Positions 1-53,200 of a stretch of DNA of 64,000 nucleotides are shown here, piece after piece. The DNA lies in NCBI GenBank assembly GCA_903813345.2, contig CAIIXF020000001.1, positions 8,618,001 through 8,682,000 of the forward strand, given 5' to 3'. The DNA comes from Owenia fusiformis (Eukaryota). Position 1 is the first letter of the stretch; each line of letters begins with the position of its first letter. The translations under genes were made by a program, and so were the position numbers. The notes beneath the pieces were generated by a model. That model saw only the letters and a program-made list of their open reading frames with translations. It did no database searches and was not told the DNA's origin.

Positions 1-3000
1 CATGATCTCAGGGATCTATCGTCAGAACGTGGATTATTGAGAACTGGCTTGATTCTAAATAATGGGAAACATCTATTACCTTATAATGTTGATGCCCCAG
101 TTGACTGTCAGGTGGACCCTAACAATGCTCATATTCCTTGTTTCCTGGCTGGGGACCATCGTGCCAATGAGCAGCTAGGTTTGCTCTCTATGCATACTAT
201 ATGGATGAGGGAACACAACCGTGTGGCTACTGAGTTACTCAGACTTAATCCACATTGGGATGGTAACATGTTGTTTCACGAGGCTAGGAAAATAGTAGGT
301 GCTCAGATGCAACATATAACATACAATGAGTGGCTTCCAAAGATCCTAGGAACTAATGGTATGGAACAGCTAGGGGTATACAAGGGCTACGATCCAACCA
401 TTGACCCAACTATTTCAAATGTATTTGCTACTGCTGCATTTAGATTTGGGCATACACTGATCAACCCATTTATATATCGGCTGAATGCAACATTCCAGGA
501 AACCAGGGAGGGACATCTCCCCTTACACAAGGCATTCTTTGCACCATTTAGGATTGTTGAAGAGGGTGGCATTGATTCAATAATAAGAGGTATGTTTGGA
601 GTAGGGGCTAAAAAGTTCAAACCAGACAATCTTCTGAACACAGAGCTAACGGAGAAGCTGTTCAAACTGGCCCATGCTGTGGCTCTAGATCTGGCTGCAC
701 TTAACATCCAACGAGGACGGGACCATGGACTCGCTTCATATAATGAATGGAGAAAATTTTGTGGCCTTTATGAAGCAGAAACATTTGATGACCTTGCCCC
801 TGAGATACAAGACAATTATATAAGGCGCAAACTAGCAGATATATATGGTCATCCAGGTAAGAAATTATTTCGTCTGTAATGTAGTAAATATGCAAGTTCC
901 TGGAGTTATCTTATATGCAATTAACTTTCTCACAACAATTATACTCGTACATGACCCGTGTCCATACATTCTAGATTAAAATCTGTAAACTGAGACAGCA
1001 TTAGCAAAAGATTAGGCTTAAAAGTAAAAGACATTGAGGTTATTGTATGAGTACCTGTGCAAGATCGTCCATTCTTGATGAGCTTTGAAAATTCTTCTTG
1101 CACATGTGACTTTTTAGGATGTAAGATGGGAATATCTTGCATGGAGTAAAGATGGCTGTATCTTTGATAATCATATTAGAAAATAGAAACGTATGAATTG
1201 GAGGTATGTTATTTTACTTCAAGACTGCGATAGTACACCCAGCAATGGTTTTCTTTCAGGAAACATTGATCTTTGGTTGGGAGGTCTGGTGGAGGACTCC
1301 TTAGATGGAAGTATGTTGGGACCAACCTTCCAATGCATCTTACAGGACCAGTTTAGGAGAAATAGAGATGGGGATAGGTCAGTATATTAGTCAGCTAATG
1401 CATTCATATGTAAAGTAGTCTCTGATTCAAAAGATTCTCCATTTAGCCTAAAATCATTGTTGGATGACACTTCCCTTTACTCTGGATGGAGGACTAAGAA
1501 TACAATTGAATATACTTTTTCAGGTTTTGGTATGAGAACCCCGGTGTTCTGAAGCCTGGTCAATTGACTGCTATAAAGCAAACTTCTCTGGCACGTGTCT
1601 TATGTGACAATGGTGATGATATTAAGAGGGTCCAGCGAGATGTATTTAAGAGAGCTGACATTAGACATGAATACAAGGATTGTGAAGAACTCCCATATGT
1701 AGACTTAAAACTTTGGACTGATTGTTGCCATGGTTTGTATAGATGTTTATTATTATGTCACCACTAGCAAGTGAAGGTATATTGTTTAAGACCTCCATTT
1801 TGTGACTGGTTGGTGGCATTTGGTGTCTGTAACAATTGCATAAGGGTTGTGAAAATGAGAAAGATTTTGAAGATTTGGATTGATGCTCACTATTCTATAG
1901 ACTGTTTTATGCAGAATTCAAATATTTAAATGTTTTGGGTCTAATAATTTAGATCGTACAGTTGTAATTTATGATAAAATCCATCATTGTCGTACCTATT
2001 TTCTAAAAGTTCCAAAATATATTTTTATATCTTCGAAATCCATTGATTTAAAGGTCTGGATTTTATAATTATGTGCATTATGATATCAGGATCTTGTTCG
2101 ATATAATTAGATCTTGCAAATCTGTGCATTCCCCTTTATGAAGAGATTTTACTTTTAATTTTCAGAATGCAGCAAATCAGGAGAGTTCAACTCTATAACC
2201 AGTCAAATATATCGCAAGAAACGATCTCTAGAATACAGTTTTCCGGAAGATTCTCCACAAAATGTTCAATCTGATGTTCCTTTCTCAATAAAACTCACAA
2301 ACAGAACATTTACAAGGTCCAAAATAAAGGAGCATAAAAAACCTGTGAAGCAAGATAACAATATGCCAAGTATTAACATTGATATGCCAAATCTGGACAA
2401 TGATATGCCAAATAAACTGAGTGGCTCTCAGGTTGACTTAATTGATGCCCGTATAGAGGGTATGGAGACAGTCATGGGAGACATGCAAAAACAAATTAGA
2501 AAGTTACATAAAAAGGTAGGTTGTATAAATGGTAAATTACATTTTGTGGAAATACTTCATTTTTATCAGAAAATTGACGCCATACAATGTCAATATATTT
2601 TTAATTTTTGAAATACATTGGAAAATATTTGTTAAAGGTAGTATCAGATTTAGCAAGCTACTTGAACAAAAAATTGTTTCAGTTTAAGAATATTTTTGAC
2701 TCATAGCATTCCTTGTCACATTTGTTTTTTAGAAGTGGCCAAGGGGCATACTGTATTTAAGGAAAACAAGATTTTTACAAAAATGTAGTCATCTTTCTAT
2801 AAATGTGGTCACCACCCTATTTTGCACTTTGAATCTTAAATAACTTGACACCAATTTATAACATATTGTGGATCTTTTGGGAGATATTATTTTTGAGATT
2901 GTAAGGAACACATCAGTTGTACATGTTGCTTGCATGTTGATAGTACCTTTAATCTTCATTAGTTCTACTATGTGAGACATGCATCACCCCCAAATGAGAA

Positions 3001-13200: not shown

Positions 13201-16200
13201 CCTTCAGTAACCCTTTCAAGGTCAAAAAAGGTCAAAAGGTCTTTTTTCATCTTGCTTCAAATTGACCAAATTTTTTATTTTCAAAATCATCTACAAGTTA
13301 AGATTGAACTCAAAATATTGTGAGCACCAGGTGGTGACACTAAGGCTGTCATTTTAAGAGATTACCACCAATCATCATGAAATTTGGTCAGATTAGCACA
13401 AATACACTGTTTTATAAGTGTGATGAATTTTATTAATAAATACAAAATATAAAATACAATTATCCCTTTATAAAAAATAGTGGGCACGCCACTTGACTTG
13501 GGATTTTGAAAGATCTGAAGCACATGTAAAATTATAACACAAAATATTGATGAATATTGATATTCTTTAAGATTGACAAATATAACAATGATTTATACCC
13601 CTGAGTATAAATATATCATGACAAGCATGCACATATGAATTCAAAGTCACTCAAAATAGTCTCCATTAGCATATATACATCGTTGCTCCCGTTTGTGTCA
13701 ACCAGGCCTTTAACCTCTTCAATTTTTTCATCATTGTTTTCATACTTTGGCCTCCCACTGCGATCATCATCATCCACACTTTCCCTTCCTTCTTTGAACA
13801 TTTTGCACCAACGAAAAATTAATCTCTTACTCATAGAGTCATTACCATAAGCCTCTTGGATATACTGCACTATATCTTTTGCTTGTTTCCCAAGCAATAC
13901 AAATGTTTTTATTGAACTCCTTTGCTGTAGTGCCAAACTCATGTTTTTGCAGTCTCCAGGACTTTTCCCTTTTTTGAGGGAGTCTATGATCATACTTTTG
14001 AGAAATTAACTGTGATGTCATACCATTTAGTCACCATAACAACATACACACAAAACATAAACATAAAACATAAACAAAAAAATTATGCTTCGATATCCAC
14101 TATACTCAAGAAAGATAGGGGTATAGAACATGTACTGATGGGCCATCATTCTTATCATTCTTACTGATTTTGATCCAAGTCAAGTGCTGTATCCTCATGT
14201 TGCTATGGCAACCAAATTACTGGTTATTATTAGTTATATCTGGTGATTTTCCGCATATAAATAGACAAATCTATTTTCAACATATGGTGAAAATTTGAGA
14301 TAAAACAAGCAAAATTTGACAAAATGAGAGCCTTAGTGTCATTACTAATTGAACGGCCTATATAAGCCTAAAGGTGTGTATGTAGAGAAGCCATGCATTG
14401 GTTCCTTTGTCTGACCTGTTTGTCTGTCCATGCATTCATTGGTTTTTGAATACTGTACATGAAGCAGGTGTTTGCCGAAAGATGTGTTCTGTTCAAAATA
14501 GCAGATTTTTATAGGTGTGGTGTAAAATCTAAGAGTTTCTGAATATGTATTTTTGTTGATTATTTGTAATTAGCAAAATTGGGATTTGTTGTTTAATAAT
14601 GATCAATTCTGTGTCATACTGGATTGTACCTTTTGTACTCATCCCGGGATATTTTAAGATAAACTCCTGAGTTGTGTTTGTAGGTCCTTACTACCCATAC
14701 ATAGGTGATGACCCGAATTATTTCACCATAGCATCCATCTTACAGCTGACTAACATTGGAAAGATCACACCAATCAGAGTTCAACAACCAAAAGTGACTT
14801 ATGATGATAACAATGTGTACCTGACTGCAACATTACTGGAGAGGCCTCCTTATTATGGTAATGGTTCTTGTCACACATTTATTGTATTTCAGTATAATGT
14901 ACAGTAAAAGCTGTTGGTAGTGGTACACCTCCGTTATTGGAACACTTTCAGAAGTGGGCCCATAAGTGGAATACTTAAAAATCTTGTTACCAATTTACTA
15001 AACAGGAATAAGCCTCTGAACGCTGGTCTAAACTATTTTTTTAAGAAAATATGACATCAATCAATTGATAAATCAATAAACAAACTTGAAGTTTTCCCTG
15101 GAACATTGCTGACAGAAAACTTGTTCAGTTCAAAATCTCATTCTTCATTTCTCTATTCCAGCTCTATTCTCAGCTGTTGAACAGTCCAAGTTCAGGCTTG
15201 GTGCAGATGCTGTTATCCCAGATATAGATCTCTCTGACTGTCAGCAGTACTGCCAAGATGAGACTGATGGACTGGGCAACACTATAGTGTGTAATAGCTT
15301 GGACTATTGTGATAATCTACGCACTTGTTCTCTCAGTACAACACACACTGGCTCTGACCCCAAAGATATTAAGACAAACCCAGGATGCACCCATTATTCC
15401 AGTAAGTTTAGAGGAATTTCCTGAAATGTTTCTTCTATTATATGTTTTCTTATTTTTAAATATTCACTCAGGAAAATGTTATAATATACTGTAATATTAT
15501 CATCAGGAAATGTTGATGCCAGAGACCAACCATCTAGAAAGCTATTAGAAGCCTGGGGTGATATTAAAGAAGCAATCTACAGGGGCAGCTTTATTATTAA
15601 TGTACCTGTTGGTGATGTTGGTACTGGTGTTGAGGTGAGGGTCTTTGTTTGTACAGTTAGTACCAGCAATGTCTGAAGTATAATAATTCTTCTTGTGTAC
15701 CCTATTTATTATCAAGATCTTCAAATAAATTTTTCACCAAAGTTTAGTGATCAATTTATGATGGGACAAACTTTCTGGCTGATTATAAAATATTTAGCAA
15801 AATAGAATATTTAAACATTTTTGGGCACCCTATATACTAGTAATGAGAAAAACTTGCAAAATGAAAATTAATTTTTTTATAGACCATTGCCTATACAGCA
15901 TCTAGAGTACGGGAAGGCCTCATTAGAGGCAAATGGCGTGATTTGCCTGGGCGTTACACTCGGCGTTTCAATGTCACTCGTGGTGTTATATTGGGTGATG
16001 TAAACATCAATATCCTTGATGTCGTCACATCTGTGGATGATTGTGCACGGGCATGCGTAACAGACACCAGTATATCATGCCTTACTTTCAACTATTGCTA
16101 TGATGAAGGTGTTTGCATGACGAGTGGACTCCACATGGATGATAACCCAATTCTCCTTGCCAACTCTTCAGGATGCGATCTTTACTCAAGTAAGATTTCT

Positions 16201-19200
16201 CCAAGGCCTTATATATTGTAAAAATTATTAATTATGCAATTATGGTGGGTAACATGTGTATATGTACAAATATCTATAATATGTACAAATATATACAAAG
16301 CTATATGATGTGTGATAAGTAAGGACATTCCAAGTTGTTTATGTTTAATGCCCTGATGAGTCTGAGGTGATACGCATTTTTAGCTTAAGTATTAAACTTT
16401 TGTAACGAATTTTTCATTTTTCAAAATGTTATTTTTGGAGTCCAGTGCCGTTTTTTAGCACTTTAGACAGTTTTGACAGTAGGAAAGTGTTTCCCAGTCA
16501 CAGTTGACAGATTATATAGTTATATTTATGAATAGAACACTTTAGGTGTACTGGGAATAGTGTAAACTACTCTTTTCTGGGAGATTTATTTTGCTTTCGT
16601 TCGTGTGCATTTTCTCACCTCCTATTAGAGAGCTCTGTTGACCTACATTCAATAACTCGTTTTTCCTTGCAATTTCGCCTTAGATTAGAGCCAATGATGA
16701 TTGGTTTTTGTTATATTTATCTAGTTTATAGCTTAATCTAGCTAGTTAATTACAAGATATATGTTTGTTCTGTGTTTAAAAACAGAGATCGTGATTGTTA
16801 GGTGAAGCTATTTTTTTGCAAAAGTTATGTCATCATTGCATCATATTAATTAATTATGCACTAGTGATATCCTGCCTGGGATTCCAGTGACTGGCCAGGT
16901 ATTGCATCAGCCGCTCGTGAGCTATGATTGGTTAGGCAGATAGTTTCGTGTGCAAAACACATGTTACATACATGTTGGGGTATAAATACGGTGGCGGACG
17001 TGACTCGGGGGCTTTCTGCGCATTGACTTTTGACGAACGGGACTATGTGGCTCTGATATTCGGGAGTTTTGGAACTACAAAACTTTGTCGTTTTTGCTAA
17101 ATGCAAAACTTAGACGATTCTTGGAACTACAAAACTTAGGAAGTTTTCTGCTAACTGAAGGATGGCATGTGATGATTGACTTGCCTAATTGAACTTCATT
17201 AGCCTGAGGTAGTAACCATAGATGATTATAAGCCACTGGTGTTGGATTCTAGGTGAATTAACTGGCTTATTGAGGGAAGTTATTGAACTACAAAACTTAG
17301 GAAGTCTTCTGGAACTACAAAACTTAGGAAGTTTTTCGCTGACTATTAGCCCGATAGTCCTAGATGATTATAAGCCACTGATGTTGGAGCATATAGCACA
17401 TTGACTTTTGACGAACGAGACTATGTGGCTCTGATTTACGGGATTTTTGGAACTGCAAAACTTAGGCAGTTTTCTGGAACTATAAAACTTTGTCATTTTT
17501 GCTATCTGCAAAACTTAGTCGTTTTCTGCTATCTGAAGAACATAGTCGATCTGCTACATGGGATGACTGACTATTGACTATTGACTTCTCTTAGCCTGAT
17601 GAAGTAGCCATTGATGATTATAAGCCATTGATGTGAAAACCTGGATGAATTCATTGGCTTATTAGAGGAATTTTTGGAACTACAAAACTTAGTCGCTTTT
17701 CAGCTAACTGCAAAATTTAGCTGATTTTTTGGATCTACAAAACTTAGAAGTTTTCTGCTATCGAAGAACATAGTCGATCTGCTACATGGGATGACTGACC
17801 ATTGACTATTGACTATTGACTTCTCTTAGCCCGATGAAGTAGCCATTGATGATTATAAGCCATTGATGTGACAACCTGGATGAATTTATTGGCTTATTAG
17901 AGGAATTTTTGGAACTACAAAACTTAGTCGTTTTTGCTAACTGCAAAACTTAGCTGATATTTTGGAACTACAAAACTTAGTCGTTTTTGCTAACTGCAAA
18001 ACTTAGCTGATATTTTGGATCTACAAAACTTAGAAGTTTTCTGCTATCTGAAGAACTTAGTCGATCTGCTACATGGGATGACTGACCATTGACTATTGAC
18101 TATTGACTTCTCTTAGCCTGATGAAGTAGCCATTGATGATTAAAAGCCATTGATGTGACAACCTGGATGAATTTATTGGCTTATTAGAGGAATTTTTGGA
18201 ACTACAAAACTTAGTCGTTTTTGCTAACTGCAAAACTTAGCTGATTTTTTGGATCTGCTACATGGGATGACTGCCCATTGACTATTGACTATTGACTATT
18301 GACTTCCCTTAGCCTGATGAAGTAGCCATTGATGATTATAAGCCATTGATGTGACAACCTTGATGAAAATATTGGCTTACTAGAGGAATTGTTTGAACTA
18401 CAAAACTTTGTCATTTTTGCTATCTGCAAAACTTAGTCGTTTTTCTGCTATCTGAAGAACATAGTCGATCTGCTACATGGGATGACTGACCATTGACTAT
18501 TGACTATTGACTTCTCTTAGCTTGATGAAGTAGCAACTGATGATTATAAGCCATTGATGTGAAAACCTGGATGAATTTATTGGCTTATTAGAGGAATTTT
18601 TGGAACTACAAAACTTAGTCGTTTTTGCTAACTGCAAAACTTAGCTGATATTTTGGATCTACAAAACTTAGAAGTTTTCTGCTATCTGAAGAACATAGTC
18701 GATCTGCTACATGGGATGACTGACCATTGACTATTGACTTCTCTTAGCCTGATGAAGTAGCCATTGATGATTAAAAGCCATTGATGTGACAACCTGGATG
18801 AATTTATTGGCTTATTAGAGGAATTTTTGGAGCTACAAAACTTAGTCGTTTTTGCTAACTGCAAAACTTAGCTGATTTTTGGATCTACAAAACTTAGAAG
18901 TTTTCTGCTATCTGAAGAACATAGTCGATCTGCTACATGGGATGACTGACCATTGACTATTGACTTCTCTTAGCCTGGTGAAGTAGCCATTGATGATTAT
19001 AAGCCATTGATGTGAGAACCTGGATGAATTTATTGGCTTATTAGAGGAATTTTTGGAACTACAGAACTTAGTCGTTTTTGCTAACTGCAAAACTTAGCTG
19101 ATATTTTGGATCTACAAAACTTAGAAGTTTTCTGCTATCTGAAGAACTTAGTCGATTTGCTGCGTGGGAATCTACAGGACTGGACAGCACTTCAAGAGGG

Positions 19201-22200
19201 TGAAGCTATCCCCAGCATAGAGCTTAAAGAAGTGGTGTCCAGCCTTCATAGACCTAATTCATGGAATTGGATGTTCCTTTTCTTCGCCTTGGTACTAGTC
19301 AGTGTTTTATTCATAGTGACCTGTTTGATCGCGATTATATGCATCCGTGTGTGTATGAGGACTGAAGCGGACTCTACTAACCAGGAACCTCAAGTAATCC
19401 TTGCACCTAGGCCAGCGTTACAGTCATCATTGGGATTCAGTTTGGCCACTGTGAACTTTGAATAGAATTCTACTTTGAACTATTATTGTACCAGAGAGTG
19501 ATCGTATATAATTAACAACAACAAGTTTATTTGGACATTTCAAATTTGTTTGTAATAATTAAGGTTATAATATATGTGAAATAAATCTATATTGTTGTCG
19601 TGTTGTAATTGCTGTAAACACAAGTACATTTAACGTGTACCCAGAAATCCCAAAAGTAACCTAGCCCTCACACTACCACAAATCGGCTAGTTTGTTACAC
19701 TGGTGGCAGTGGTGGGATATTGTGATTGCAGACTTTGTGATACAACATAACAATATGGAACAAATGACAGATCTTCCATCTCGAGTGTCAATGGAACGTA
19801 GGGAAGATAGTGAGCTAGAGAAAACAGTTTTTCTGAAGACTGATAAAATGGAGATAAACAACCCAAGAGCGGGTGATGATACTTTGCCGGTACCGAGAAA
19901 GAATATTGCATGTACAGCGTCTCCTGGATCCCGATTTAAGACATTAAAATCAGGAACAAGAGAAAAGGATTTGCCAAGCCTTTGGAGTACTGGATATTGG
20001 AGTGGAAAAGTGTTGGATAACACTTTCATCAGTAGTGATGAAGGAGACCCTCCAAGAAGGCAGAGATTTCCCCTTACCTCGACTAATGACAGACCCTCAG
20101 TAAGTCTAAAGAAAGTAGAGGATACCCTGAGACGAGATTTGAGTATGGTAGAGGAGAATGTTGAGGAGAAGATGTCCATTTTGAATGAGACTATTGTGGG
20201 CCAACAGAGCCAAATATAGAAGTTGGCTGAAGCTCAGCAGAGAAGTATGGCCCAAGTGGTGGAGACTCAACAGAGTATGATACGGGGACAAAGGGAGTTA
20301 CAACCGATGATGATGGGGACCATAAATAAAGTTGCAGAGCAGTTCAAGGAAAACTTGAACCATCAGGAGATGAAGACACGAGAAATAAGGAACCAAATGG
20401 AGGGTTTACAGAAGACTATTGTTGACTCGATTATAGAGGAATTACATGACAGTTTGATAGTCAACAAATCAGAAGTAGATGTTAAACCCCAAACAGATCA
20501 ATCGAGAAAAGTTTCAAGGCAGCCAGGAGATCGAACAGTAGATCCTGTCAAAGATTGCTCAGATAAGACACCACCTAGTGGCTGGATCACAAGAGAGCAG
20601 AGTGTTAACAAATTACAGGACCACCAGGATAATCCTCCTGAAGATGGGTATTTACCAGAGGAACAAAGACGCTCCAGACTGCCAGAAAGTGATAGCCACC
20701 ATGAAACTGAATTATCTGTCGAGTTGGTTAAAATGTGTAACAGTCTCTGTGAAAGACTGTCCTCGGAAAACAGAGAGAAGTCCAAAAGTCGGGTTAAACC
20801 TGATACTTTTGATGGCACCACCCCTTGGCAGGATTATAGGGCTTATTTTGATATCTGTGGAGATTTAAACCATTGGTCGGAAGCAGACAAAAGGAATTTC
20901 TTAGCCACGAGCCTGAGAGGCCCAGCTCAAGAAATGGTTCTAGAGATGGGACAGAACTATACATATGACCAACTCCTTCTGGCCTTGGAGAAAAGGGTTG
21001 GTCCATGTGGCAAGGCCGAGGTTTATGAGGCAGAGTTAGTCAGCAGGATTCGAAAGCCTAAGGAAACTCTGCAAGCCCTGGGCCAGGACATAAGGAGGCT
21101 CACGGCACTCGCTTATCCAGAGATGAGTCAAACCGCTCAGGATCGTCTTGCCAGACGGAGTTTTGAACAGTCCATATTAGAGGAGGATATACGGAGGGCA
21201 ATACATTCAAAGGAATGTAATACCTTGGATCAAGCCATTGAAGTAGCCCTTAAGGAAGAATCCTATCTGGAATCCGAAAGGATAAGGAAGGGACAAAAAC
21301 CAAAGAGTAGTCGTGTAATGGCTATTGAAGACAAGGACGAGAATGAAAATAAATTAATAGCCCTGGAGAATAAGATTGAAACTCTGATGGAGAAAATGAT
21401 GGAATTAATGTCCAAGCAGAACAAGTCTGAGCCTGAGATGTCAAGGCCAGCTTTCCGGAGAATGGAATGTTTTTACTGCCATAAGCCTGGACATCGAATA
21501 GCTGAGTGCTTCTCCAGAAAACATGCTGAGGAGCGGGCTAGGGAAGCCCAAGACAGAACCAGCCAAGTAGCCACAGTGGAATTTCTATCCCGAGAAAGAA
21601 AAGATGTCATGTTTTCCAAAAACATCAACAAGATAGTTGCTCATGGAACAGTTTGCAACACAGATGTTGCATTTCTAGTTGATTCAGGAGCAGCTAGTAC
21701 CATTGTAAACTCGGAGGTCTACCGAAAGATATCTGAACTTAAGAGGCCAAAACTGGAGCCGTCCAATAGGGTCATAATACAAGCTGGCGGAGAACCATTA
21801 AGTCAAAAGGGTGTTATGTGTGTTGGAATAAACATTGGTGGCCATGTCGAGAACTTAAAAGCAGTAGTGGCAGATATTGAATTCGATGGCATCTTAGGTA
21901 CTGATTACCTTGCTGCTGCAGGAGCCATATTAGACTATGGTCAGCGTAAGATGTCTATGAGATCAGGCCCTTCTAGAGATGCTCAGGTACGAGCTAGAGA
22001 CACACATAAACGAACATCTCGGAGAGTGACTATGGATGTAGTAAGTAGTCATCCAATCCGAGATAAGAGATATAGCCAGAGAGTTAGACTGAGTGAATCT
22101 TCTGGAAACATGAGAAATGTTGGACAGGATAGTCCAGGTACGTCCAGTACTCGTCCAATTAAGGTCCCACTAGCAAGAGTCTATAGGTCGAAATACTCAG

Positions 22201-25200
22201 GACCCCGACAGAGATCTGACACAGATTATGATTGGAGGAATCATCGTGTTTGCCTCCCATGAAATACTAATTCGAGAGTACAGCCTAGAAAAATATGAAG
22301 TATGTCAAGGACATGGTGTGATATGTCAATATGTATTTGTAGCACTTAGCTGCGAGTTGAACTTGTGAAGATAATTTTGTACATATTAGTTAGGCATTCA
22401 GTAGTTAGATATTTAGTGTTAAGGTTTGAGAAAAACCCAAGTTTAATGAGTTTATGCTAGATAACTCTCATTGCACCTCACAGCACTGATAGATAACCCC
22501 GGGGTTAAACAAACCAGATAGATTATAAGTGTAGGAAATAGCTAGTTAGGAAAAATTCGTTATTTTTTTTTTATAACTTAGGCTTGGTGTTGTTAACACC
22601 AAAATCATTGGTTGGGAGGAGTGTAACGAATTTTTCATTTTTCAAAATGTTATTTTTGGAGTCCAGTGCCGTTTTTTAGCACTTTAGACAGTTTCGACAG
22701 TAGGAAAGTGTTTCCCAGTCACAGTTGACAGATTATATAGTTATATTTATGAATAGAACACTTTAGGTGTACTGGGAATAGTGTAAACTACTCTTTTCTG
22801 GGAGATTTATTTTGCTTTCGTTCGTGTGCATTTTCTCACCTCCTATTAGAGAGCTCTGTTGACCTACATTCAATAACTCGTTTTTCCTTGCAATTTCGCC
22901 TTAATTAGAGCCAATGATGATTGGTTTTTGTTATATTTATCTAGTTTATATCTTAATCTAGCTAGTTAATTACAAGATATATGTTTGTTCTGTGTTTAAA
23001 AACAGAGATCGTGATTGTTAGGTGAAGCTATTTTTTTGCAAAGGTTATGTCATCATTGCATCATATTAATTATGCACTAGTGATATCCTGCCTGGGATTC
23101 CAGTGACTGGCCAGGTATTGCATCAGCCGCTCGTGAGCTATGATTGGTTAGGCAGATAGTTTCGTGTGCAAAACACATGTTACATACATGTTGGGGTATA
23201 AATACGGTGGCGGACGTGACTCGGGGGCTTTCTGCGCATTGACTTTTGACGAACGGGACTATGTGGCTCTGATATTCGGGAGTTTTGGAACTACAAAACT
23301 TTGTCGTTTTTGCTAAATGCAAAACTTAGACGATTCTTGGAACTACAAAACTTAGGAAGTTTTCTGCTAACTGAAGGATGGCATGTGATGATTGACTTGC
23401 CTAATTGAACTTCATTAGCCTGAGGTAGTAACCATAGATGATTATAAGCCACTGGTGTTGGATTCTAGGTGAATTAACTGGCTTATTGAGGGAAGTTATT
23501 GAACTACAAAACTTAGGAAGTCTTCTGGAACTACAAAACTTAGGAAGTTTTTCGCTGACTATTAGCCCGATAGTCCTAGATGATTATAAGCCACTGATGT
23601 TGGAGCATATAGCACATTGACTTTCGACGAACGAGACTATGTGGCTCTGATTTACGGGATTTTTGGAACTGCAAAACTTAGGCAGTTTTCTGGAACTATA
23701 AAACTTTGTCATTTTTGCTATCTGCAAAACTTAGTCGTTTTCTGCTATCTGAAGAACATAGTCGATCTGCTACATGGGATGACTGACTATTGACTATTGA
23801 CTTCTCTTAGCCTGATGAAGTAGCCATTGATGATTATAAGCCATTGATGTGAAAACCTGGATGAATTTATTGGCTTATTAGAGGAATTTTTGGAACTACA
23901 AAACTTAGTCGCTTTTCAGCTAACTGCAAAATTTAGCTGATTTTTTGGATCTACAAAACTTAGAAGTTTTCTGCTATCGAAGAACATAGTCGATCTGCTA
24001 CATGGGATGACTGACCATTGACTATTGACTTCTCTTAGCCCGATGAAGTAGCCATTGATGATTATAAGCCATTGATGTGACAACCTGGATGAATTTATTG
24101 GCTTATTAGAGGAATTTTTGGAACTACAAAACTTAGTCGTTTTTGCTAACTGCAAAACTTAGCTGATATTTTGGAACTACAAAACTTAGTCGTTTTTGCT
24201 AACTGCAAAACTTAGCTGATATTTTGGATCTACAAAACTTAGAAGTTTTCTGCTATCTGAAGAACTTAGTCGATCTGCTACATGGGATGACTGACCATTG
24301 ACTATTGACTATTGACTTCTCTTAGCCTGATGAAGTAGCCATTGATGATTAAAAGCCATTGATGTGACAACCTGGATGAATTTATTGGCTTATTAGAGGA
24401 ATTTTTGGAACTACAAAACTTAGTCGTTTTTGCTAACTGCAAAACTTAGCTGATTTTTTGGATCTGCTACATGGGATGACTGCCCATTGACTATTGACTA
24501 TTGACTATTGACTTCCCTTAGCCTGATGAAGTAGCCATTGATGATTATAAGCCATTGATGTGACAACCTTGATGAAAATATTGGCTTACTAGAGGAATTG
24601 TTTGAACTACAAAACTTTGTCATTTTTGCTATCTGTGAAAACCTGGATGAATTTATTGGCTTATTAGAGGAATTTTTGGAGCTACAAAACTTAGTCGTTT
24701 TTGCTAACTGCAAAACTTAGCTGATTTTTGGATCTACAAAACTTAGAAGTTTTCTGCTATCTGAAGAACATAGTCGATCTGCTACATGGGATGACTGACC
24801 ATTGACTATTGACTTCTCTTAGCCTGGTGAAGTAGCCATTGATGATTATAAGCCATTGATGTGAGAACCTGGATGAATTTATTGGCTTATTAGAGGAATT
24901 TTTGGAACTACAGAACTTAGTCGTTTTTGCTAACTGCAAAACTTAGCTGATATTTTGGATCTACAAAACTTAGAAGTTTTCTGCTATCTGAAGAACTTAG
25001 TCGATTTGCTGCGTGGGAATCTACAGGACTGGACAGCACTTCAAGAGGGTGAAGCTATCCCCAGCATAGAGCTTAAAGAAGTGGTGTCCAGCCTTCATAG
25101 ACCTAATTCATGGAATTGGATGTTCCTTTTCTTCGCCTTGGTACTAGTCAGTGTTTTATTCATAGTGACCTGTTTGATCGCGATTATATGCATCCGTGTG

Positions 25201-27418
25201 TGTATGAGGACTGAAGCGGACTCTACTAACCAGGAACCTCAAGTAATCCTTGCACCTAGGCCAGCGTTACAGTCATCATTGGGATTCAGTTTGGCCACTG
25301 TGAACTTTGAATAGAATTCTACTTTGAACTATTATTGTACCAGAGAGTGATCGTATATAATTAACAACAACAAGTTTATTTGGACATTTCAAATTTGTTT
25401 GTAATAATTAAGGTTATAATATATGTGAAATAAATCTATATTGTTGTCGTGTTGTAATTGCTGTAAACACAAGTACATTTAACGTGTACCCAGAAATCCC
25501 AAAAGTAACCTAGCCCTCACACTACCACAAATCGGCTAGTTTGTTACACTTTGTAATGGTGAAAATACTGAAGCTGAAATACCTTCACATACTCCATTGA
25601 GTATAATATGATCTTTGATCACTTTTATGTTTCAATTTTCATTTGAATTCGTTTCAAGTACACATCAAACAATTTGATTTCTCTTCTGAACATTTGACCA
25701 ATCCTTGTGGAATGAATAAGAACTTTCTCGCATACATGTGAATCTATGTATATCATTTCAAATGTTATTTCTATGATTTGTAGGGGATTATCTGAGCCAA
25801 TATAATGGGTATCCTGGCTTACAGGTGTTTACACAAAATGATGTCATACTCTATGACATAGTCAGTGTATCAGCTTGTGCCCACAGGTAACTATAGCTAC
25901 CATATTGCTTTCTAAGAAATTACTTTTACACCCATTGTTTTACCAATCTGATTGTGAGGACAGTGAAAAGATGAAATAAATATGTATTTTCATAAATGCA
26001 GATACATATACTTCAATTCATCAATCATTGCACAACCAAAATATTCCTCATACTTAATTTTCAAAATTATTTTATATTTAGAGCTCAAACAAGTACAGTT
26101 CTCACAGGTCTTGACATGTTTGCATGAAGGAGTTATATATATTGAATATTGTACCCTTACCATATATGAAAACACCAGTTTTATGGTTGATAAGGGCATG
26201 CCTAGTAGTACATGTTTTTGCATGGCCTTGCACTTACATGTTTTGTCTTCATTGACCAGTTATCCAGACATTAAACACTTAATTTTAGGTGCTCCAACTG
26301 GGACACACTAGATGAAGGAGACTTTGATTGCAAGTCGTTTGATTACTGCTCAGCAGACAACTCCTGTGGCCTCAACAAAGGACACTTCTTTGAGTTTCCA
26401 TTCAAGAACAAAACCTCACAGCCAACATGCCAACACTGGTCAAGTAAGTTAACTTATTTCATCATTTGGTAGTGTTGATAATGTAACTTTTACTGGCCAT
26501 ACTCTCAAATACATGCAATAAATAAATGTATGATTTTGAACTAATATTTTGATATGCAAATATCTCTAAACTGGTAATTCTTTATGAGATTTAAATTGTT
26601 CAGATCCCTTCATATATCATTTTACATGTTTTAGGAAACTACTTAGCAGACTTTGAACTGAAACAACAACGTGTAGTCCCATTGAAGAACACAGAGGTGT
26701 ACAAAACAGATATTGAGAACTGTGCCAAGCTATGTGTTGGGTTAGGTGGAACATGCAAAGGCTTTGATTACTGCAAGAATGTGTCTGAATGTGTTCTCAC
26801 AACTGAACTGTTTAGTAAGATAAAGATAGGACAAACCGTACCTGAAACACAAGCATATTGCAGTAGATATTCACGTAAGTTCAAACTCCAAATTGTAAGT
26901 TCAAACTCCAAATTGAATAAGATCTACATTACTAATAAGCATTGCAGAATGGATATTATTGATACTTTTTAAACATCTAGTAATTTTGAATTGAATTCTG
27001 CTTTCATTTAGGGTCTTATTATCCCGATGGTTCAGACTTTAACCCAGGAGCCACAAAATATGTGAAGGTACCAGAAAAGGGGGGTTTCTCAGCAGGTAGG
27101 TTGTGTTGTAAGCTTTGTGATTTTTAGCTGAAGTTCCAAAAGTTTAAGACCTCCCATTCTTGATATGTGTTCTCAGTGTGCATTTAGTCTAGTAGTTTTT
27201 CAACTCATTCTTATATTTCTGTAATTTTCCAAAAATGTAGAGTTAAGAGTCCAATATGTAATAATGTGTGTAATCTTTCAGGTGCCATGGCTGGTGTAGG
27301 AGTAGGAATGGTGGTATTGGGAGCTGTTCTTGGAGTTGCAATCATCTTCATAGTAAATAAGGTCAGAGGACCAGCTAAAGATGGCATGGGAGTACATTTC
27401 GTCAATAACCCTCAGTAA
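7289..27418 (+). CDS. Uncharacterised type I membrane glycoprotein: signal peptide, 2 ependymin/LolA-like beta modules, 4 PAN/Apple domains, TM, short tail. Exons 7289-7299, 7691-7800, 8143-8337, 8502-8635, 9077-9185, 9431-9588, 10236-10358, 10588-10699, 10965-11140, 11542-11649, 12809-13010, 14684-14857, 15162-15401, 15507-15634, 15883-16189, 25784-25886, 26289-26443, 26635-26874, 27012-27095, 27282-27418
   Basis: All exons have AG/GT boundaries and join in phase. N-terminus MIVRLLQVALCVLSVDG. Four C-x3-C...C-x-[ST/G]-[FL]-[DN]-YC...C...C patterns (PAN). TM GAMAGVGVGMVVLGAVLGVAIIFIV. The fold assignment of the N-terminal modules is inference. Confidence 0.85.
11679..12649. mobile_element. 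Non-autonomous DNA transposon with ~70 bp TIRs and 10 bp TSD (Mutator/MULE-like)
   Basis: ATCCAGTAAT duplicated at 11669-11678 and 12650-12659. Termini GGGTTTGTGTAAAAAAC...GTTTTTTACACAAACCC. Internal ACGTT-rich degenerate repeats. Confidence 0.9.
13335..14360 (-). mobile_element. Internally deleted mariner relic encoding only the N-terminal DNA-binding HTH region
   Basis: ORF 13616-13993: QRSSIKTFVLLGKQAKDI..IQEAYG..MSKRLIFRWCKMFKEGRESVDDDDRSGRP is typical of the mariner/Mos1 HTH. No DDD domain. Partial inverted repeat TGACACTAAGGCT(G/C)TCATTTT at 13335 and ~14321-14342. Confidence 0.85.
17450..19160 (+). repeat. Tandem array of ~226 bp units inside the 5' LTR (about 7 units), built from GAACTACAAAACTTAG-like subrepeats and (CTATTGA)n
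   Basis: GAAGAAC(A/T)TAGTCGAT recurs near 17535, 17763, 18050, 18454, 18688, 18914 and 19141. The identical-type ORFs at 18682 and 18908 are 226 bp apart. Confidence 0.92.
19106..19465 (+). CDS. LTR-borne ORF with one TM helix (env C-terminus-like or small membrane protein). First ATG at 19271 gives 64 aa
   Basis: Hydrophobic WMFLFFALVLVSVLFIVTCLIAIICI followed by a polar tail. Identical copy in the 3' LTR. Expression is unproven. Confidence 0.45.
   Translation: MDLQNLEVFCYLKNLVDLLRGNLQDWTALQEGEAIPSIELKEVVSSLHRPNSWNWMFLFFALVLVSVLFIVTCLIAIICIRVCMRTEADSTNQEPQVILAPRPALQSSLGFSLATVNFE
19701..19718 (+). other. Primer-binding site complementary to the tRNA-Leu 3' end
   Basis: TGGTGGCAGTGGTGGGAT starts 1 nt after the 5' LTR. 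Its reverse complement ATCCCACCACTGCCACCA matches the 3' end of metazoan tRNA-Leu(AAG/UAG class) plus CCA. Confidence 0.85.
19755..22262 (+). pseudogene. gag-pro: gag-protease polyprotein with one in-frame TAG at 20217-20219
   Basis: ORFs 19692-20219 and 20223-22262 are in the same frame. Coiled-coil N-terminus, capsid-like KPDTFDGTTPWQDY..F, zinc knuckle CFYCHKPGHRIAEC, aspartic protease FLVDSGA...GILGTDYL. Confidence 0.9.
22610..22621 (+). other. Polypurine tract
   Basis: GGTTGGGAGGAG directly abuts the TG of the 3' LTR. Confidence 0.75.
22622..25548 (+). repeat. 3' LTR (2927 bp)
   Basis: Nearly identical to the 5' LTR but lacking ~360 bp of the tandem array. Confidence 0.95.
24955..25314 (+). 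CDS. Second copy of the LTR-borne TM ORF
   Basis: The 119 aa translation is identical to that of 19106-19465. Confidence 0.45.
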   Translation: MDLQNLEVFCYLKNLVDLLRGNLQDWTALQEGEAIPSIELKEVVSSLHRPNSWNWMFLFFALVLVSVLFIVTCLIAIICIRVCMRTEADSTNQEPQVILAPRPALQSSLGFSLATVNFE

Positions 27419-33042: not shown

Positions 33043-43359
<10,317 letters not shown>

Positions 43360-47241: not shown

Positions 47242-50200
47242 ATGGCTCCTCATCGAGGAACAACAATCGTTCATACAGAATTTCCACTTTATACCGTACG
47301 TGCCCTAGGTGATCGTCATTTTATGGTGGCGGGAGGAGGAGGAACTGCTAAGACGGGTGTTAAGAATGCTATTGTAAGTGAAATCTTTCAGTTGTTGGTA
47401 GAAAAAAGCTATAGGATAAACACGTCATCATAAATAAACTTCAGACTTCAGTTCAAAATTTGAGGTAAGTCACAGGAACTTGTAGCACTCACGGACCTTT
47501 GCCAGATTACCTCCTCTGTGTCTAGGCTCAATAAATATACTCAAGGACAAGACACGAGATCTTCGGAAAATTTATTTTTTCTTGATTTTGGAGTCAGTTT
47601 ATCGATAAATAGAGTCTATCACATGTCATACATCAAATGATGCATACTGTTAGCTTCAACTCCAATCGCTAAAGCCACACATCCAAGAAAGCGTCTGCTG
47701 ATAAAAGCATAAAATAAGCGAGCGTATATTTAATGGAGTGCTTCGGCTATTTCCATTGTTCAAATGTTTATTCCCAAAGTCAAATGCATTTTCTGAGAAT
47801 GTGACGACATTCCGGATGACGTCACATCAGAGATTACCAAGAAGTCCCATGACGTTTCTTTAAACTCCTGTAGAAACAATAACAACCGTTTGTTAGGCTA
47901 CGCGATCCTTTACTTTCATTGGCTGCTTGTTGCAATGTAACGTAATTTGAGAGACGAACAACATCTGACACTGCCGGAAATTACCGAAGCACTCCATTAT
48001 CTTAACGCTCTGAAACTTTGAAATAAATGTCCCGGGAAAATTCGAATTACAGCGTCAATAATGGATATCATGCAACCATTCAAATTAATACATAAAGAAG
48101 AGATTACTGGGTAAATATTGATCAATCAATGTCTGACAGATGGAAAAAAAGGTCAGTATGACAGTCATATTTTTGGGTGGTCATTTTTTTGATGTAGTAT
48201 TTTTGGCTCATGTCCTATCTTCCCATTTATCCTTTGAGCCTACTACCAATAGGGGCTGGATCTGGCTCCGGATCTGTGGTAGCACTAGGCTATGAATGCT
48301 TACAACCAATCAATGAAGTGTAAGGAACGCATGCTATATACATGCTCATTATCCCAACGAACAAAGTTCTGTAGGGATATAGTGAAGCCCTCCGTCCGTC
48401 AGTCCGTCTGTCCGGAAGATAACTCGAATACTAGTTGACAGATTTTCTTCATATTTAGTGGAAAGATGTATATTGGTGAATAGTTCTACCCAAAATTTTT
48501 TTTTTCAAGATGGCCACCAGTCTAAAAATGGCGGGAATTTTTCGCAAAAATCTTATGTTTTTCATTTCAAACCAAAATAATAAATATTATATTATATATA
48601 TTATTTGAAATTTTGGTAGTATATTAACAACATCTATCTATTTCACATTTATCCCGGGTTTTTCACCCTGACCCCCAGGGGCCGTAAATGGGAGATTGGG
48701 AAAACAGGAATTTGCGTTAATTTTGAGATGTTTTTGAAGTATAGCTTTATTATATAATTGAAGGAATTTCAGAGCAGATCACAATTATGGCATTGTTTTT
48801 CTGATTTGCGCCTCTGAAAATTCAAAATGGCTGACTAGAGCAGAAATTCGACATTACTTAGAGTTATCTTGAAAGTATGGTTACATGATACTACAATGAT
48901 TTATTTAAAATATTTATTGAAGGTAAGAGTATATGGTAAATATTACATTGTGACTGTACAGATTGATGATTTATATAGTGTTCGTTGGGATTTGCTACTC
49001 CGTGGAGTTGCCATTTTCTAGTTAACTATGCAGGGATGTAATAGGAAATGACCATATAGAAAGTCGTCCGTATTTCTACGATGAACTCTGATTAGCTCGG
49101 TGATATCAGAGATTTATTGTAGACTGAAAGAGTGAAGAGGAAGCTCTCTTTTCAAGAAGTGAAGTTGAACGAATGCAAAGGGTATATGGAAAAATACATG
49201 TGCAGTATGTCCATCATATTGTACATAAATGACATTTGTATATTTCAGATTATTTCGGTTTTTGTGCAATAACCTTGTGGCCTCTTATAGGGGTTTCAGT
49301 CGTGTTATTCGAAAATAACAAGGCAGAGAAGCATCAAAATATAAGAGGCCATACCTTTTAAGCCTAACCAGAAGCAATCCAAGATATACAAATCTCATTT
49401 GTGTTTAATATAAATTATTTTTCCATATATTGTTGCACAATGGTCTTTTGATTTCTTATCTTCTTAGGTTTTATTTATGTAAATAATAAAACAGTGAAAT
49501 GGACTGTATCAATTATACTTTCTTCTGAAATATAAGGTCTATTCATTGTTCAATCACCTCTTCAATGCATAAACCATGAATGCATGTAATATATACAGTG
49601 TACATGTATCTACAGTACCTCGTCCTCCATGCAAGAACAAGAGAGTTCAAATCAAAGATGTCAGGGGTAGTAAAATGTGCCCCACTGGATTGTACAAGCA
49701 CTCCAAATTTTCAATTCTAGTTAAGTCATAAATCAAAATCAGCCTCTAATGGCTTTCTTTTTGCAGGAAATTTATGAAATTAAGAATGCAGAAGGAGAAC
49801 TCCACTCAGAAAAGTTGGGCCGCCATGAAACAACTGATGCAGTTATGAACAGTGCATGTATTTGCAACACTAAGAACTATGTGCTGGCAGCTGGGATGGA
49901 AGACAAATGTGAAATATTTAACCTACGATACAAAATTATGTTTCAGTCTAAAAATCCAGGTAAGAATTTAATGATTTACAAAAAAGTATATGTTAACGTG
50001 ATGCAGTAGAAATTGAGAAAACTGCTAGAAACCCATGTCATTTATGTTATGTATAAATAAACCATGAAAAATTGTGACAGTTTTTGACATTTGAGAAATT
50101 TTAATTCTTGAAGATAATTGAATGTGTATTTATAGATGGAGACACTGTGGTTAGGAAAAGGAAGAGCAATCTGACGAAAGCTCAGGACATCAAAGATGCT

Positions 50201-53200
50201 GAGCGTTCTATTAAATTTGAAGTTGAGCACCTGAACTCAGTGACAACAGACTTCCATAGCAAAGGTGGCTACCAGAAAGTTGTTGCGTTCAATCTGGAGG
50301 GAACACTCATGGCAACTGGGGGAGGAGATGGACATCTCAGGGTTTGGGAGGTAAATATAAGATATCAATATTTTAAAGTCTAGAAACAAACAAAAGAACA
50401 CAACTGTGCCTGGTAAGGTGTATTACTTGTATTTTTGGGTGAAGTAAGATAGAGGAAAAATAAACCCCAGAATGTATAGATGAACCTGTATTCAGATTTA
50501 CCCTTCTTATAGTTAAGATATAAAAGCTATGTACATGATGTATAATTGATTCAGTTACAGCTTAACATTTTGCAGGCAAGCATAATCATAAATCATAATC
50601 ACCAGTACTCTTATTCAATACCTGGTTGTTTTACTCAACATTGTGACATTCATTCTTACCAGTCTACTTTCTCATGTGACAAATTGATAGACAAATATTT
50701 GAAGGATTTATTTGTAACAAGAATGTAATTTAAAGTATGTATATTTCAGTATCCCAAATTGAAGAAAGTGTGTGATGTAAAGGCACATAACCAGGAGATT
50801 GATGATCTGGACATTAGCCCACAACAAAATAAGGTACACCACTATAATAACAGCATCGTTATATTGTTCATATGGAGTTTATATTACCACTATAGTTAAC
50901 ATAGGGGTCTGCAATCAGTCTTTACCAAACAATAATTCATTTTCCATTTGGCATATTATTTCCAGTAGGTTTGTGTGTACATGTGGTTTCTAAGAAAGAA
51001 ATGAGGGACGTTAAATGCTTATTATTATTTAAAGACTTTCTGCTCCCCCCCAGTGCTGGGTCTATGGGACCACCAATACCTCCCCCAGCAAACTCAAATG
51101 TCTTATTGGTTGTAGTGTATAATCTATCTGAAAGACACGTCTATAAATTTGCACATTCCACTTTTTGCATATTTTAAATTTCAGGTTGTGACCCTCTCTA
51201 AAGATAACAATGCATTTATATGGGACAGTAGGAAAGGAAACAAAATATGTCCACTCAAGTGGACTCAAAATACAGGAGATACAAAATACAGATATAGAAA
51301 CTGTAGGTAAGTTCATATAATTCTTATACAATGAAATAGATCACTCATAGTTTGGCAAGGTGTGTCCTAATCCAGCCAATCCAAACATAGTGTTTCAAAT
51401 ACTTGCAGTGCGTTATATGTCACCAATCACCACATCCAAGGTCACTCCTTGCATTGTTGTCAAAAAGTCATTGAAAAAATATTCTTTTAGTGATTTTGTA
51501 TCTTTTATGTGACATGATAGAGAATATTTTGCAATGTGTGAAAAGAATTTAAGCCCAAGACCCAATGCATTGTGGAATGACCATTCTTTTCAGGTCTTGT
51601 TTCCTAAAATTAACTTCTTTTTTAAAATTAACACTTGATGCTGTGTGTCTCATGCAAAGGACGATTCTCGGTTTGGAGAACAGTCTCCTGGGCTAATAAT
51701 TTTTTCATGAAAAATATAGAAATATTACCCAAATTAAACTATGAATATTCAAAAGAGGACATTTAAACCTACAAGATGTAAAAATAACAAATTGGTCTGA
51801 AGCAGGGATAACGCTCAATTAGACCGATTCAATAAAATACAAGTCTCGATTTGGGGAAAGAAGTTCATCAGTGTACTGCGCTAATATTTTTTTGCGAAAA
51901 ATCTAGAAATATTACCCAAATTAAATTATGACTATTCAAAAGAGGACATTCAAATCTATATTATGTAAAAAAAATCAAATTTGTCCGAAGCAGGGATAAT
52001 GCTCATTTAGATTGATGAACTTCGTTCTCCAAACCGAGAATCGTCCTTTTGGAAAGCAACCCCTTCAAGGAATGGTCAAAACACATTGTACTGATTCCAG
52101 GGCTTAAATTCTTAAATAAATGATATATGATATTATAATCTTAACTGTTGAATACATGAACCACTAGCAGATCCATGTTCTACCCCCTAGGGAAAACAAT
52201 TTGTAAGGCCTCAATTAGTGGGCCTTTTTAGGCATTACTTGGCCTTTTTGGGCCTATTTAAAAAAAATTCTGACTTGAAATGTAGCCCCCTTGTTAGCTT
52301 CTGGATCTGCCAGTATGTACATATAGTTTAAGATGGGTAACTAAGGCCCAAACTATACAGGAAGTCTTGCATATATTGATAATAATTAAGGAAAAACTAC
52401 ATAATAGTCAAGTGTTAAGCATAGAATTAAATTCTTTGTTTATTTTGAGTTTTTCATCTTCATTTAGATATGGCCTTATAGAGGGAGCAAGAGATAAGTT
52501 CAACCTCTACACGACACATATACCTGTAGTCAGGGGAACTAAACCGCCAAATTGTTACCTCACAAAGTGGGAGACCAAGAACTACACACCTTGTAAGATA
52601 GTCAGCACTGGTCAGGCAGTCACTTCAGCATTAGCAGTCAGGTAGGGAATATTCAACTATGAGATTGCCTTCTATATTATCTGGTTCACCTTTTGCTTAA
52701 TCGAGACTGATTCCAGAGTCATTGTGTAAGGCTGTAAGGAGAAAAGAAAATATGTGTTTTGTCAACTTTTTGTTTTTGGCTGAAAGTAAAATTACTTATC
52801 AAGATCTAAATTGTTAGTTAATTCCATTATTTAAGCAAAGTTTGGTTTGCTCTATGGGTATCTTAGATGGATTGCTAAAACCTATTTTGTTGCAAGAATG
52901 GTCAAAGTTAGATAAATATCAGTGATGAAAATCATGTTCATGAAGCGGTGGCTTGAGGGAAAATGTACAGTATGTGTATCTAAATCAAAAAACTGTGGTG
53001 AGAAAGTCTGTGGTGAGGTCAAATTATCATTTTGAAAAATTCAGTGTCCAACTTAAAAGTTGCATTAAATGTTTCATACTTCTGTTTCCAGCTCAGATGG
53101 TACCTACCTTGGACTAGGGACATTATCTGGAGATGTAGGGGTCTATATCTCATATAGTTTACAGGTAATAACATACAGTACTTGGTAAGTCATTTGCCAT

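Follow-up and report, generated by a model that had tools for sequence, protein, structure and literature searches.

A very young LTR retrotransposon of probable Ty3/Gypsy type with giant, array-filled terminal repeats and a gag-protease interior lacking pol

The subject of this report is a long terminal repeat (LTR) retrotransposon found in 64,000 nucleotides of Owenia fusiformis DNA (assembly GCA_903813345.2, contig CAIIXF020000001.1, positions 8,618,001 to 8,682,000 of the forward strand). This whole stretch is called the window below, and all positions refer to it. The element occupies 16401-25548 on the plus strand (9148 bp). Its interior encodes Gag and a protease (PR) and lacks reverse transcriptase (RT), RNase H (RH) and integrase (IN), while more than two thirds of its length is made up of two giant LTRs.

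Termini, repeats and age of the element

In its structure the element is complete, and it is very young. Its termini carry everything that is expected of an LTR retrotransposon, namely long LTRs with TG..CA ends, a target-site duplication, a primer-binding site (PBS) and a polypurine tract (PPT) (Table 1). Both LTRs begin with TGTAAC and finish with GTTACA, and together they account for 6226 of the 9148 bp (68%). The first-pass annotation, a note made from the sequence before the present analysis, had placed the element at the same coordinates, with LTRs of 3.3 and 2.9 kb making up about two thirds of it, and its reading of the ends, the PBS and the PPT also held. The CTTT duplication was read on both sides and lies within the usual range of 4-6 bp, the probability of a 4-bp match by chance being 1/256. 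Because a C directly follows both LTRs, the boundary may be shifted by one nucleotide, which would give a 3-bp TTT duplication instead. The PBS, TGGTGGCAGTGGTGGGAT, was compared with a published probe because no local tRNA gene was available for comparison (a tRNA scan of the window returned 0 genes); it is identical in 18 of 18 positions to the first 18 nucleotides of the antisense probe for the 3' end of tRNA-Leu(UAG), as the probe is given in PMC6103689. The window is free of N, and no Rfam family reached its gathering threshold anywhere in it, so that neither a ribozyme nor another known RNA was found in the LTR arrays described below.

Global alignment of the two LTRs yields 2927 aligned columns with 7 mismatches, together with four indels (1, 4, 7 and 360 bp), each of which is extra sequence in the 5' LTR. 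The 7-bp indel corresponds to one repeat in a run of ATTGACT; the largest one, of 360 bp, falls within the tandem array and explains nearly all of the 372-bp difference in LTR length. If substitution rates of 1-5e-9 per site per year are taken, which is an assumption and not a computed value, 7 differences in 2927 bases (or 5, when the two mismatches beside the 360-bp indel are left out) would put the insertion at the order of 1e5-1e6 years ago. The element had been called very young before, and the LTR comparison agrees with this.

Table 1. Features of the element and of its surroundings (aa, amino acid residues of the Gag-protease open reading frame (ORF); TRF, Tandem Repeats Finder; pLDDT, predicted local distance difference test)
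Feature	Positions	Strand	Basis or remark
Left target-site duplication, CTTT	16397-16400	.	Letters read directly; repeated 3' of the 3' LTR
5' LTR, 3299 bp, TGTAAC...GTTACA	16401-19699	+	blastn, global alignment with 3' LTR, direct repeats
Unique 5' segment of 5' LTR	16401-17068	+	GC content 0.373
TATAAATA, possible promoter element in the unique 5' segment	16981-16988	+	Letters read directly
Tandem array in 5' LTR, 2.1 kb	17069-19169	+	About 64% of the LTR; TRF, repeat families
LTR-borne ORF, 126 codons stop to stop	19085-19465 (5' LTR), 24934-25314 (3' LTR)	+	
AT-rich 3' segment of 5' LTR	19466-19699	+	
TATATAAT and AATAAA	19505-19512 and 19580-19585	+	Letters read directly; follow the LTR-borne ORF
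LTR indel sites	16683, 16845-16848, 17801-17807, 18431-18790		All inside short or long tandem repeats
PBS, TGGTGGCAGTGGTGGGAT, 1 nt past the 5' LTR	19701-19718	+	Complementary to the 3' end of tRNA-Leu(UAG)
Upstream gag part, 154 codons from the first ATG past the PBS, ends at TAG	19755-20219	+	No recognisable domain
Gag-protease ORF, 671 aa, in the frame of 19755-20216	20247-22262	+	Pfam; homology search
Capsid-like helical domain, aa ~181-350	20787-21296	+	Model pLDDT 87-97; conserved core of all relatives
CCHC zinc knuckle CX2CX4HX4C, aa 407-422	21465-21512	+	Pfam zf-CCHC below cut-off
Complete retropepsin with DSG and ILGTD, aa ~463-573	21633-21965	+	
R/S-rich tail, 98 codons, without homology	21966-22259	+	pLDDT <50 from aa 583
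Non-coding stretch between stop and PPT, 347 bp	22263-22609	+	GC content 0.31-0.35; no Pfam match in any frame
PPT, GGTTGGGAGGAG, adjoining the 3' LTR	22610-22621	+	Letters read directly
3' LTR, 2927 bp, layout as 5' LTR	22622-25548	+	blastn, global alignment
Tandem array in 3' LTR, 360 bp shorter than the 5' one	~23285-25018	+	
Right target-site duplication, CTTT	25549-25552	.	Letters read directly
PAN_1-domain ORFs	15113-15421, 15883-16218 (before the element), 26595-26969 (after)	+	
Animal haem peroxidase exons (Pfam An_peroxidase)	1-879, 1510-1764	+	E 3e-103 and E 1.8e-10

The gag-protease interior and the missing pol

The interior (19700-22621, 2922 bp) holds one long frame, which spans 86% of it (19755-22259). 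The first-pass annotation had described this frame as coding only for Gag, with a capsid-like part and a CCHC knuckle, and for a protease. The domain content was supported by Pfam, profile searches and a structural model. The extent of the frame, however, had been missed: it is open from 19701, has its first ATG at 19755, is cut by a TAG at 20217-20219, resumes at 20220 and ends at the stop at 22260-22262. Given the local base composition, 172 upstream codons would stay open with a probability of 3.6e-6, and therefore 19755-20216 is taken to be the N-terminal portion of gag, interrupted by the stop. This part has no Pfam match, and phmmer gave nothing significant for it against a small set of 154 relatives (best E 0.049). 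Since the TAG lies in frame downstream of the first ATG, the present copy probably does not make full-length Gag-PR, and the earlier statement that the family makes its own particle finds no support in this copy.

The capsid-like region corresponds to a segment that in the relatives matches Retrotrans_gag or PNMA of Pfam, and the profile built from the family found Ty3 proteins in the PDB, with E 5.2e-7 for Ty3 Gag-Pol (7q5b_A) and 0.0019 for a Ty3 Gag chain (6r22_A). The same search also matched nucleocapsid (NC) chains, and residues C408, C411, H416 and C421 of the knuckle are invariant or nearly so in alignments with the relatives. The protease matches Pfam Asp_protease_2 at aa 467-555 over positions 3-90 of the 90 of the Pfam model (E 3.4e-9), and D479, G481, G551 and D553 are invariant in the alignment. 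An AlphaFold2 model computed from a 23-sequence alignment has a mean pLDDT of 69.1 and is confident at aa ~181-350 (87-97) and at aa ~461-570 (93-97), with values below 50 at aa 583-671. Foldseek comparison of the whole model with the PDB returned retropepsins, the protease of equine infectious anaemia virus being the best (target-normalised TM score 0.85, E 7e-7); no capsid chain was present among the matches listed, and for this reason the capsid assignment rests on the sequence and profile evidence. A Gag with a capsid-like domain and a CCHC nucleocapsid, followed by a retropepsin, is the arrangement expected of Ty3/Gypsy elements, and it is present here.

The same domain content is found in domesticated gag-protease host genes such as PEG10, RTL or ASPRV1, and the best PDB matches of the family profile are in fact chains of retroviral-like aspartic protease 1 (E 5.9e-17). 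We give hardly any credence to the locus being such a gene. The near-identical LTRs, the PBS, the PPT and the target duplication contradict it, as do the in-frame stop, the probable intronic location (see below) and the failure of the protein searches to find close orthologues. With all transposition signals intact and no close homolog found, the element does not belong with the PEG10/RTL-like genes.

No remnant of the rest of pol was recognised, as had been noted before. When the 18 six-frame segments of at least 20 aa from 21900-22621 were searched against Pfam at E values up to 10, none matched RT, RNase H or integrase, and two gave only weak, unrelated, sub-threshold matches. Comparison of the interior with the 154 related proteins by tblastn produced 199 high-scoring segment pairs (HSPs) at E<=1, and no sense-strand match ended past 22064. 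The 15 largest sense-strand ends range from 21938 to 22064, and only two of them (22058 and 22064) exceed 21986. In an alignment that included 22 relatives, most of those reaching past the protease share a conserved block of the form G..GC.RV....IPP.SE, followed by ARtLV and PVR..N. This block is absent from the ORF of the element, whose residues beyond about aa 573 (nt 21965) show no relation to the relatives. Since homology to the relatives stops right past a complete protease, about 3.5 kb of pol is missing.

What follows the protease is still open for 98 codons, for which the chance is 0.0027. The tail is rich in R and S (19 and 15, respectively, of 101 residues), is predicted to be disordered and has no tblastn or phmmer match among the 154 relatives. 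GC content remains coding-like (0.40-0.45) up to the stop and then falls to 0.31-0.35 in the short non-coding stretch before the PPT, which had been estimated at about 360 bp and measures 347. It is likely, judging from where homology ends and the frame continues, that a deletion junction lies at about 21965-22065, where the protease was joined to a sequence that once was, or still is, coding; the tail could, for example, represent the ancestral pol's variable C-terminus.

Collapse or mis-joining of the interior during assembly, or mis-assembly of the LTR arrays, would produce a similar picture, and it has to be admitted that repeat-rich LTRs which differ by 360 bp exactly within a tandem array are hard to assemble. 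The interior is nevertheless unique sequence with a reading frame continuous across the presumed junction, the PBS, PPT and target duplication are all in register and there is no N in the window, so that an artefact appears very improbable. As the sequence stands, an element without RT and integrase cannot copy itself, and if it moved in the present form, both enzymes must have been supplied in trans.

Tandem arrays, an LTR-borne ORF and the neighbouring genes

The array-filled giant LTR and the transmembrane-like ORF that it carries are the sole unusual features of the element. Array units in the 5' LTR are about 196-287 bp long (TRF gives a period of 227 and 7.5 copies at 17443-19169), and each holds 26-27-bp subrepeats with the core CTRCAAAACTTAG. 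There are 28 copies of this 13-mer in the 5' LTR and 24 in the 3' LTR, all on the plus strand; the rest of the window has none, and 0.30 occurrences would be expected. It is mostly to this array, located in what is presumed to be U3, that the LTRs owe their giant size. The proposal that the element carries cargo in its LTRs is not borne out: most of the supposed cargo is a minisatellite-like array, to which one ORF is added, and no captured gene was identified.

The part of this ORF that is unique, 19170-19465, is an island of higher GC content (0.449, against 0.363 and 0.303 in its flanks). It encodes a 26-residue hydrophobic helix set between NSWNW and RVCMR, with a tail of 35 residues behind it, and among the 450 stop-to-stop ORFs of at least 45 aa in the window its hydropathy is reached only by its own two copies. 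Pfam gave nothing above the cut-off for it, only sub-threshold matches to membrane segments; no homologs were found among proteins of 222-2000 aa, and the Atlas contained no usable match. It has the look of a membrane protein's terminal exon or, alternatively, of a small membrane protein that the element itself encodes.

Downstream of this ORF, TATATAAT and AATAAA are likely the promoter and the poly(A) signal; with these, R would be short and U5 about 100 nt long. U3 would then extend to about 19535, with R and U5 both short. Transcription may alternatively start near 17010, giving an R of 2.6 kb; this is less likely, since the 5' poly(A) signal, at 2.6 kb from the promoter, would need to be passed over. 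The scan for promoters and terminators used bacterial consensus sequences and is uninformative for a eukaryotic sequence.

ORFs with PAN_1 domains lie on both sides of the element on the plus strand, and therefore an intron of a PAN-domain gene is its probable location, with gene and element oriented alike. Such a sense intronic insertion, with poly(A) signals of its own, may affect the host gene by truncating its transcripts. Further away, the gene to which the two haem peroxidase exons belong appears to end near 1764. An ORF at 13619-14005 on the minus strand resembles the helix-turn-helix (HTH) of Mos1-type transposases (HTH_48, E 5.6e-5, just under the Pfam cut-off) and is probably a remnant of a mariner-like transposon. 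Leucine-rich-repeat ORFs at 38672-39049 and 41193-41432 (minus strand) and a weak WD40 match at 50105-50380 (plus strand) are probably exons from further genes of the host. RT, RNase H or integrase was found in none of the 68 other window ORFs of at least 75 aa.

Compared with the first-pass annotation, the point at which homology stops, the in-frame TAG, the array of about 227-bp units, the LTR-borne ORF and the probable location in an intron of a PAN gene are new.

Relatives, origin and known systems

A word-indexed protein search found three relatives of similar length and a longer one, and an exhaustive search of 1.84 billion representatives returned 6655 proteins at E<=1e-3, of which 113 were at E<=1e-30. 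Among the best 150 of the 6655 the highest identity is 45%, the best-scoring match being 39% identical. Three full-length relatives (P0004, P0069 and P0116) carry PR, RVT_1, RT_RNaseH, Integrase_H2C2, rve and Integrase_p58_C in this order, and the spacing between protease and RVT_1 in full-length relatives is about 235 residues. The closest full-length relatives are about 21-33% identical to the element in Gag-PR. P0116 in addition fuses Tc1-type transposase domains to gag-pol and is a chimeric gene model.

Pfam was run on 20 of the 150 listed relatives, chosen because they had at least 690 aa or aligned through the protease. RVT_1 was present in 4, integrase pieces without RT in 3, a protease without RT or integrase in 11 and only a CCHC in 2. 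P0001 combines Gag-PR with Integrase_H2C2 and has no RT; together with P0142, P0043 and P0095, in which Gag-PR is likewise followed by integrase pieces without RT, it represents internally deleted elements or spliced gene models. Database proteins that appear to contain only Gag and PR were considered as evidence for gag-PR families and rejected, since several of them run into the conserved N-terminal region of RT.

A collection of prokaryote genomes contained no exact match to the 27-mer formed by the LTR end and the PBS. A profile-based scan of the same collection gave 119 pattern matches, from which five loci with 29-33% identity were confirmed, all on contigs filed under bacterial metagenome-assembled genomes (MAGs). 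The ORFs of two of them, L001 and L005, carry RT-RH-IN, and that of L001 also a protease; to judge by their ORFs, both look autonomous. In L001, gag and pol (PR-RT-RH-IN) occupy separate overlapping frames and the LTRs are about 535 bp long. A third locus, L002, is 99.94% identical to L001 over 5348 bp and is rearranged past the integrase core. L001 (1-10437) and L002 (1-8695) come from one bacterial MAG and are eukaryotic DNA binned with a bacterium. The homology of Gag-PR to proteins and loci ordered PR-RT-RH-IN suggests that the element is of Ty3/Gypsy type.

Taken together, these observations lead us to propose, with a probability of roughly 0.6, that the element is non-autonomous and derives by deletion from a Ty3/Gypsy-type (Metaviridae-like) retrotransposon, and that it arrived at the present site already deleted and was copied and integrated by the RT and integrase of a relative. 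The deletion of pol would in this case predate the insertion. The deleted RNA would have been transcribed from the 5' LTR and packaged in particles of a compatible Gag, its reverse transcription would have been primed by tRNA-Leu(UAG), and RT and integrase would have come in trans from an autonomous relative, whose Gag-Pol recognises the same LTR ends. The family's own Gag-PR may or may not have contributed to the mobilisation, because the TAG interrupts gag in the present copy. The cis signals for reverse transcription and integration (LTRs, PBS, PPT and target duplication) are complete, and with only 7 mismatches in 2927 bases there was little time for a 3.5-kb deletion after insertion. The existence of a gag-protease family that borrows RT and integrase from a Gypsy partner, as proposed in the first-pass annotation, is plausible.

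Several points weigh against an already deleted arrival. One copy only is present, and the 64-kb window contains no second copy, solo LTR or partner. Nothing more than 45% identical was found among the best 150 matches from the 1.84 billion representatives, so that these matches point to neither a family nor a partner. The Gag-PR-only relatives appear to be mostly truncated gene models and provide no evidence for families of this kind. The gag frame of the present copy is interrupted at 20217-20219, the sequence has no feature that tells whether deletion or insertion came first, and four LTR indels, one of them of 360 bp, imply that the locus was rearranged after or during insertion.

These same points make room for a one-off event, in which an autonomous element inserted here, lost RT-RH-IN by a single 3.5-kb deletion and has never moved since. 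The single copy, the stop that the gag frame has acquired or carries, and the LTR indels, which testify to indel activity at the locus within the same short time, all speak for this scenario. The LTR indels are, however, all located in tandem repeats and are of the slippage type, unlike the loss of 3.5 kb of unique sequence, and the time available, as measured by 7 substitutions in 2927 bases, was short. The break also spares a complete protease and 98 further open codons, and young deleted copies elsewhere usually result from the transposition of already deleted RNAs, at least in the systems covered by the cited passages of PMC11735389 and PMC10924933. We consider a one-off deletion rather unlikely, though a serious contender.

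If the element did arrive already deleted, it may further belong to a selected semi-autonomous lineage, in which Gag and PR are under purifying selection, the particle is the family's own and only RT and integrase are those of the partner. The protease is complete, all conserved residues of Gag, NC and PR are kept, the tail after the protease is open for 98 codons (p 0.0027), and precedents exist in plants, as described in the relevant parts of PMC6097303 for Fatima 1.4/1.5 and of PMC13570524 for sugar beet. An intact ORF in so young a copy is, on the other hand, uninformative on selection, the TAG stands 154 codons past the first ATG, and from one copy no ratio of nonsynonymous to synonymous substitution (dN/dS) can be obtained; nor was a partner found in the window. 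This narrower proposal seems to us doubtful.

Improbable, in our opinion, is the still more elaborate possibility of an animal Ty3/Gypsy semi-autonomous parasite with selected Gag and protease that draws RT and integrase alone from a partner retrotransposon and whose 3.3-kb LTR carries a functional extra unit, the array with 28 copies of the 13-nt motif acting as an enhancer or a silencing decoy. The extra unit would be a gene for a small transmembrane protein or else a terminal exon transduced from a membrane protein of the host; in the case of the exon, the 3' untranslated region and poly(A) signal of the host would now terminate the transcripts of the element. A parallel for a small protein gene borne by an LTR is the sag ORF in the LTR of mouse mammary tumour virus.

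Among known systems, the apparently autonomous loci L001 and L005 and the protein P0069 share homologous Gag, NC and PR with the element and differ from it by the presence of RT-RH-IN and, in L001, by the short LTR and the separate gag and pol frames. TR-GAG (terminal-repeat retrotransposons with GAG domain) elements were reportedly first described from Coffea, and TRIM elements (terminal-repeat retrotransposons in miniature) are said to occur in bivalves. LARDs (large retrotransposon derivatives) have long LTRs and, like our element, are large, non-autonomous and LTR-dominated and have no pol. In the classification given in the cited part of PMC13570524, LARDs exceed 4 kb and are placed among the non-coding non-autonomous elements. 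The 9148 bp of the element would pass by length; its interior, unlike that of a LARD, is coding, and it is not assigned to this group. TR-GAGs, called 'semi-autonomous' in the same passages, are also non-autonomous and retain the Gag ORF, but they are said there to keep GAG 'while lacking enzymes', whereas here the protease is complete and 9.1 kb is above the size spectrum proposed (PMC13570524). With its complete protease and a Gag frame that is also interrupted by TAG, the element is not a TR-GAG either.

The closest counterparts in content are the gag-protease derivatives of plants. In Arabidopsis, ATHILA derivatives with only gag and protease number 35, 207 and 205, against 11, 112 and 71 complete elements, in three genomes for which the cited part of PMC11735389 gives counts. 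In wheat, subfamilies RLC_famc1.4/1.5 of Fatima are reported in the section concerned to have ORFs for gag and protease, RT and INT being present in subfamily 1.1 (PMC6097303), and in sugar beet 28 of 115 non-autonomous families keep only GAG/PROT according to the passage cited (PMC13570524). As far as these passages go, such derivatives resemble our element in retaining the LTRs, PBS, PPT, gag and protease, in missing RT, RNase H and integrase, and in presumably obtaining RT and integrase from autonomous relatives. They differ in being multi-copy families, documented across whole genomes, and in occurring in plants, among Ty3/Gypsy and Copia elements; ours is a single copy in an animal-type genome, and its LTRs of 3.3 kb make up 68% of it. 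A limited word-matching literature search found no gag-protease-only LTR family in an animal and this configuration only for plants, which is not proof of absence.

The view that such non-autonomous elements are known mainly from plants is fair for forms with only gag and protease, but it does not extend to defective LTR elements mobilised in trans, which the cited sections of PMC10924933 describe in cattle, mouse and koala: the D-type of ERVK[2-1-LTR] in cattle, mouse ETn/MusD and IAP I-delta-1, and koala RecKoRV. Defective D-type copies are there said to dominate the new bovine ERVK[2-1-LTR] insertions. These elements are similar to ours in having animal hosts, in being young copies mobilised by competent relatives and in conserving flanking gag portions. 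They are different, in the account given there, in that they are retrovirus-derived (betaretrovirus-like) and that the D-type is without an intact ORF, its central segment having been swapped rather than simply deleted.

Tandem repeats in non-autonomous LTR elements of invertebrates have a precedent in Culex quinquefasciatus, for which 38 non-coding families are reported in the passages cited from PMC3286476. Their LTRs are more than 98% identical, and they carry a clear PBS (Leu being one of those found), a PPT and a target-site duplication. Tandem repeats form a major part of them and, as in our case, no master copy is known; in the families described there the repeats lie between the LTRs and no coding sequence is present, whereas here they are inside the LTRs and gag-pro is kept.

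Taken as a single locus, the element is an ordinary product of retrotransposon decay. If further copies that share the junction are found, it would document a non-autonomous gag-protease-only LTR family in an animal and provide a young, possibly polymorphic case for the study of competition between defective and autonomous elements. Derivatives with only gag and protease are established in plants, mammals are known to have defective LTR elements that are mobilised in trans, and the element described here is of the same general kind.

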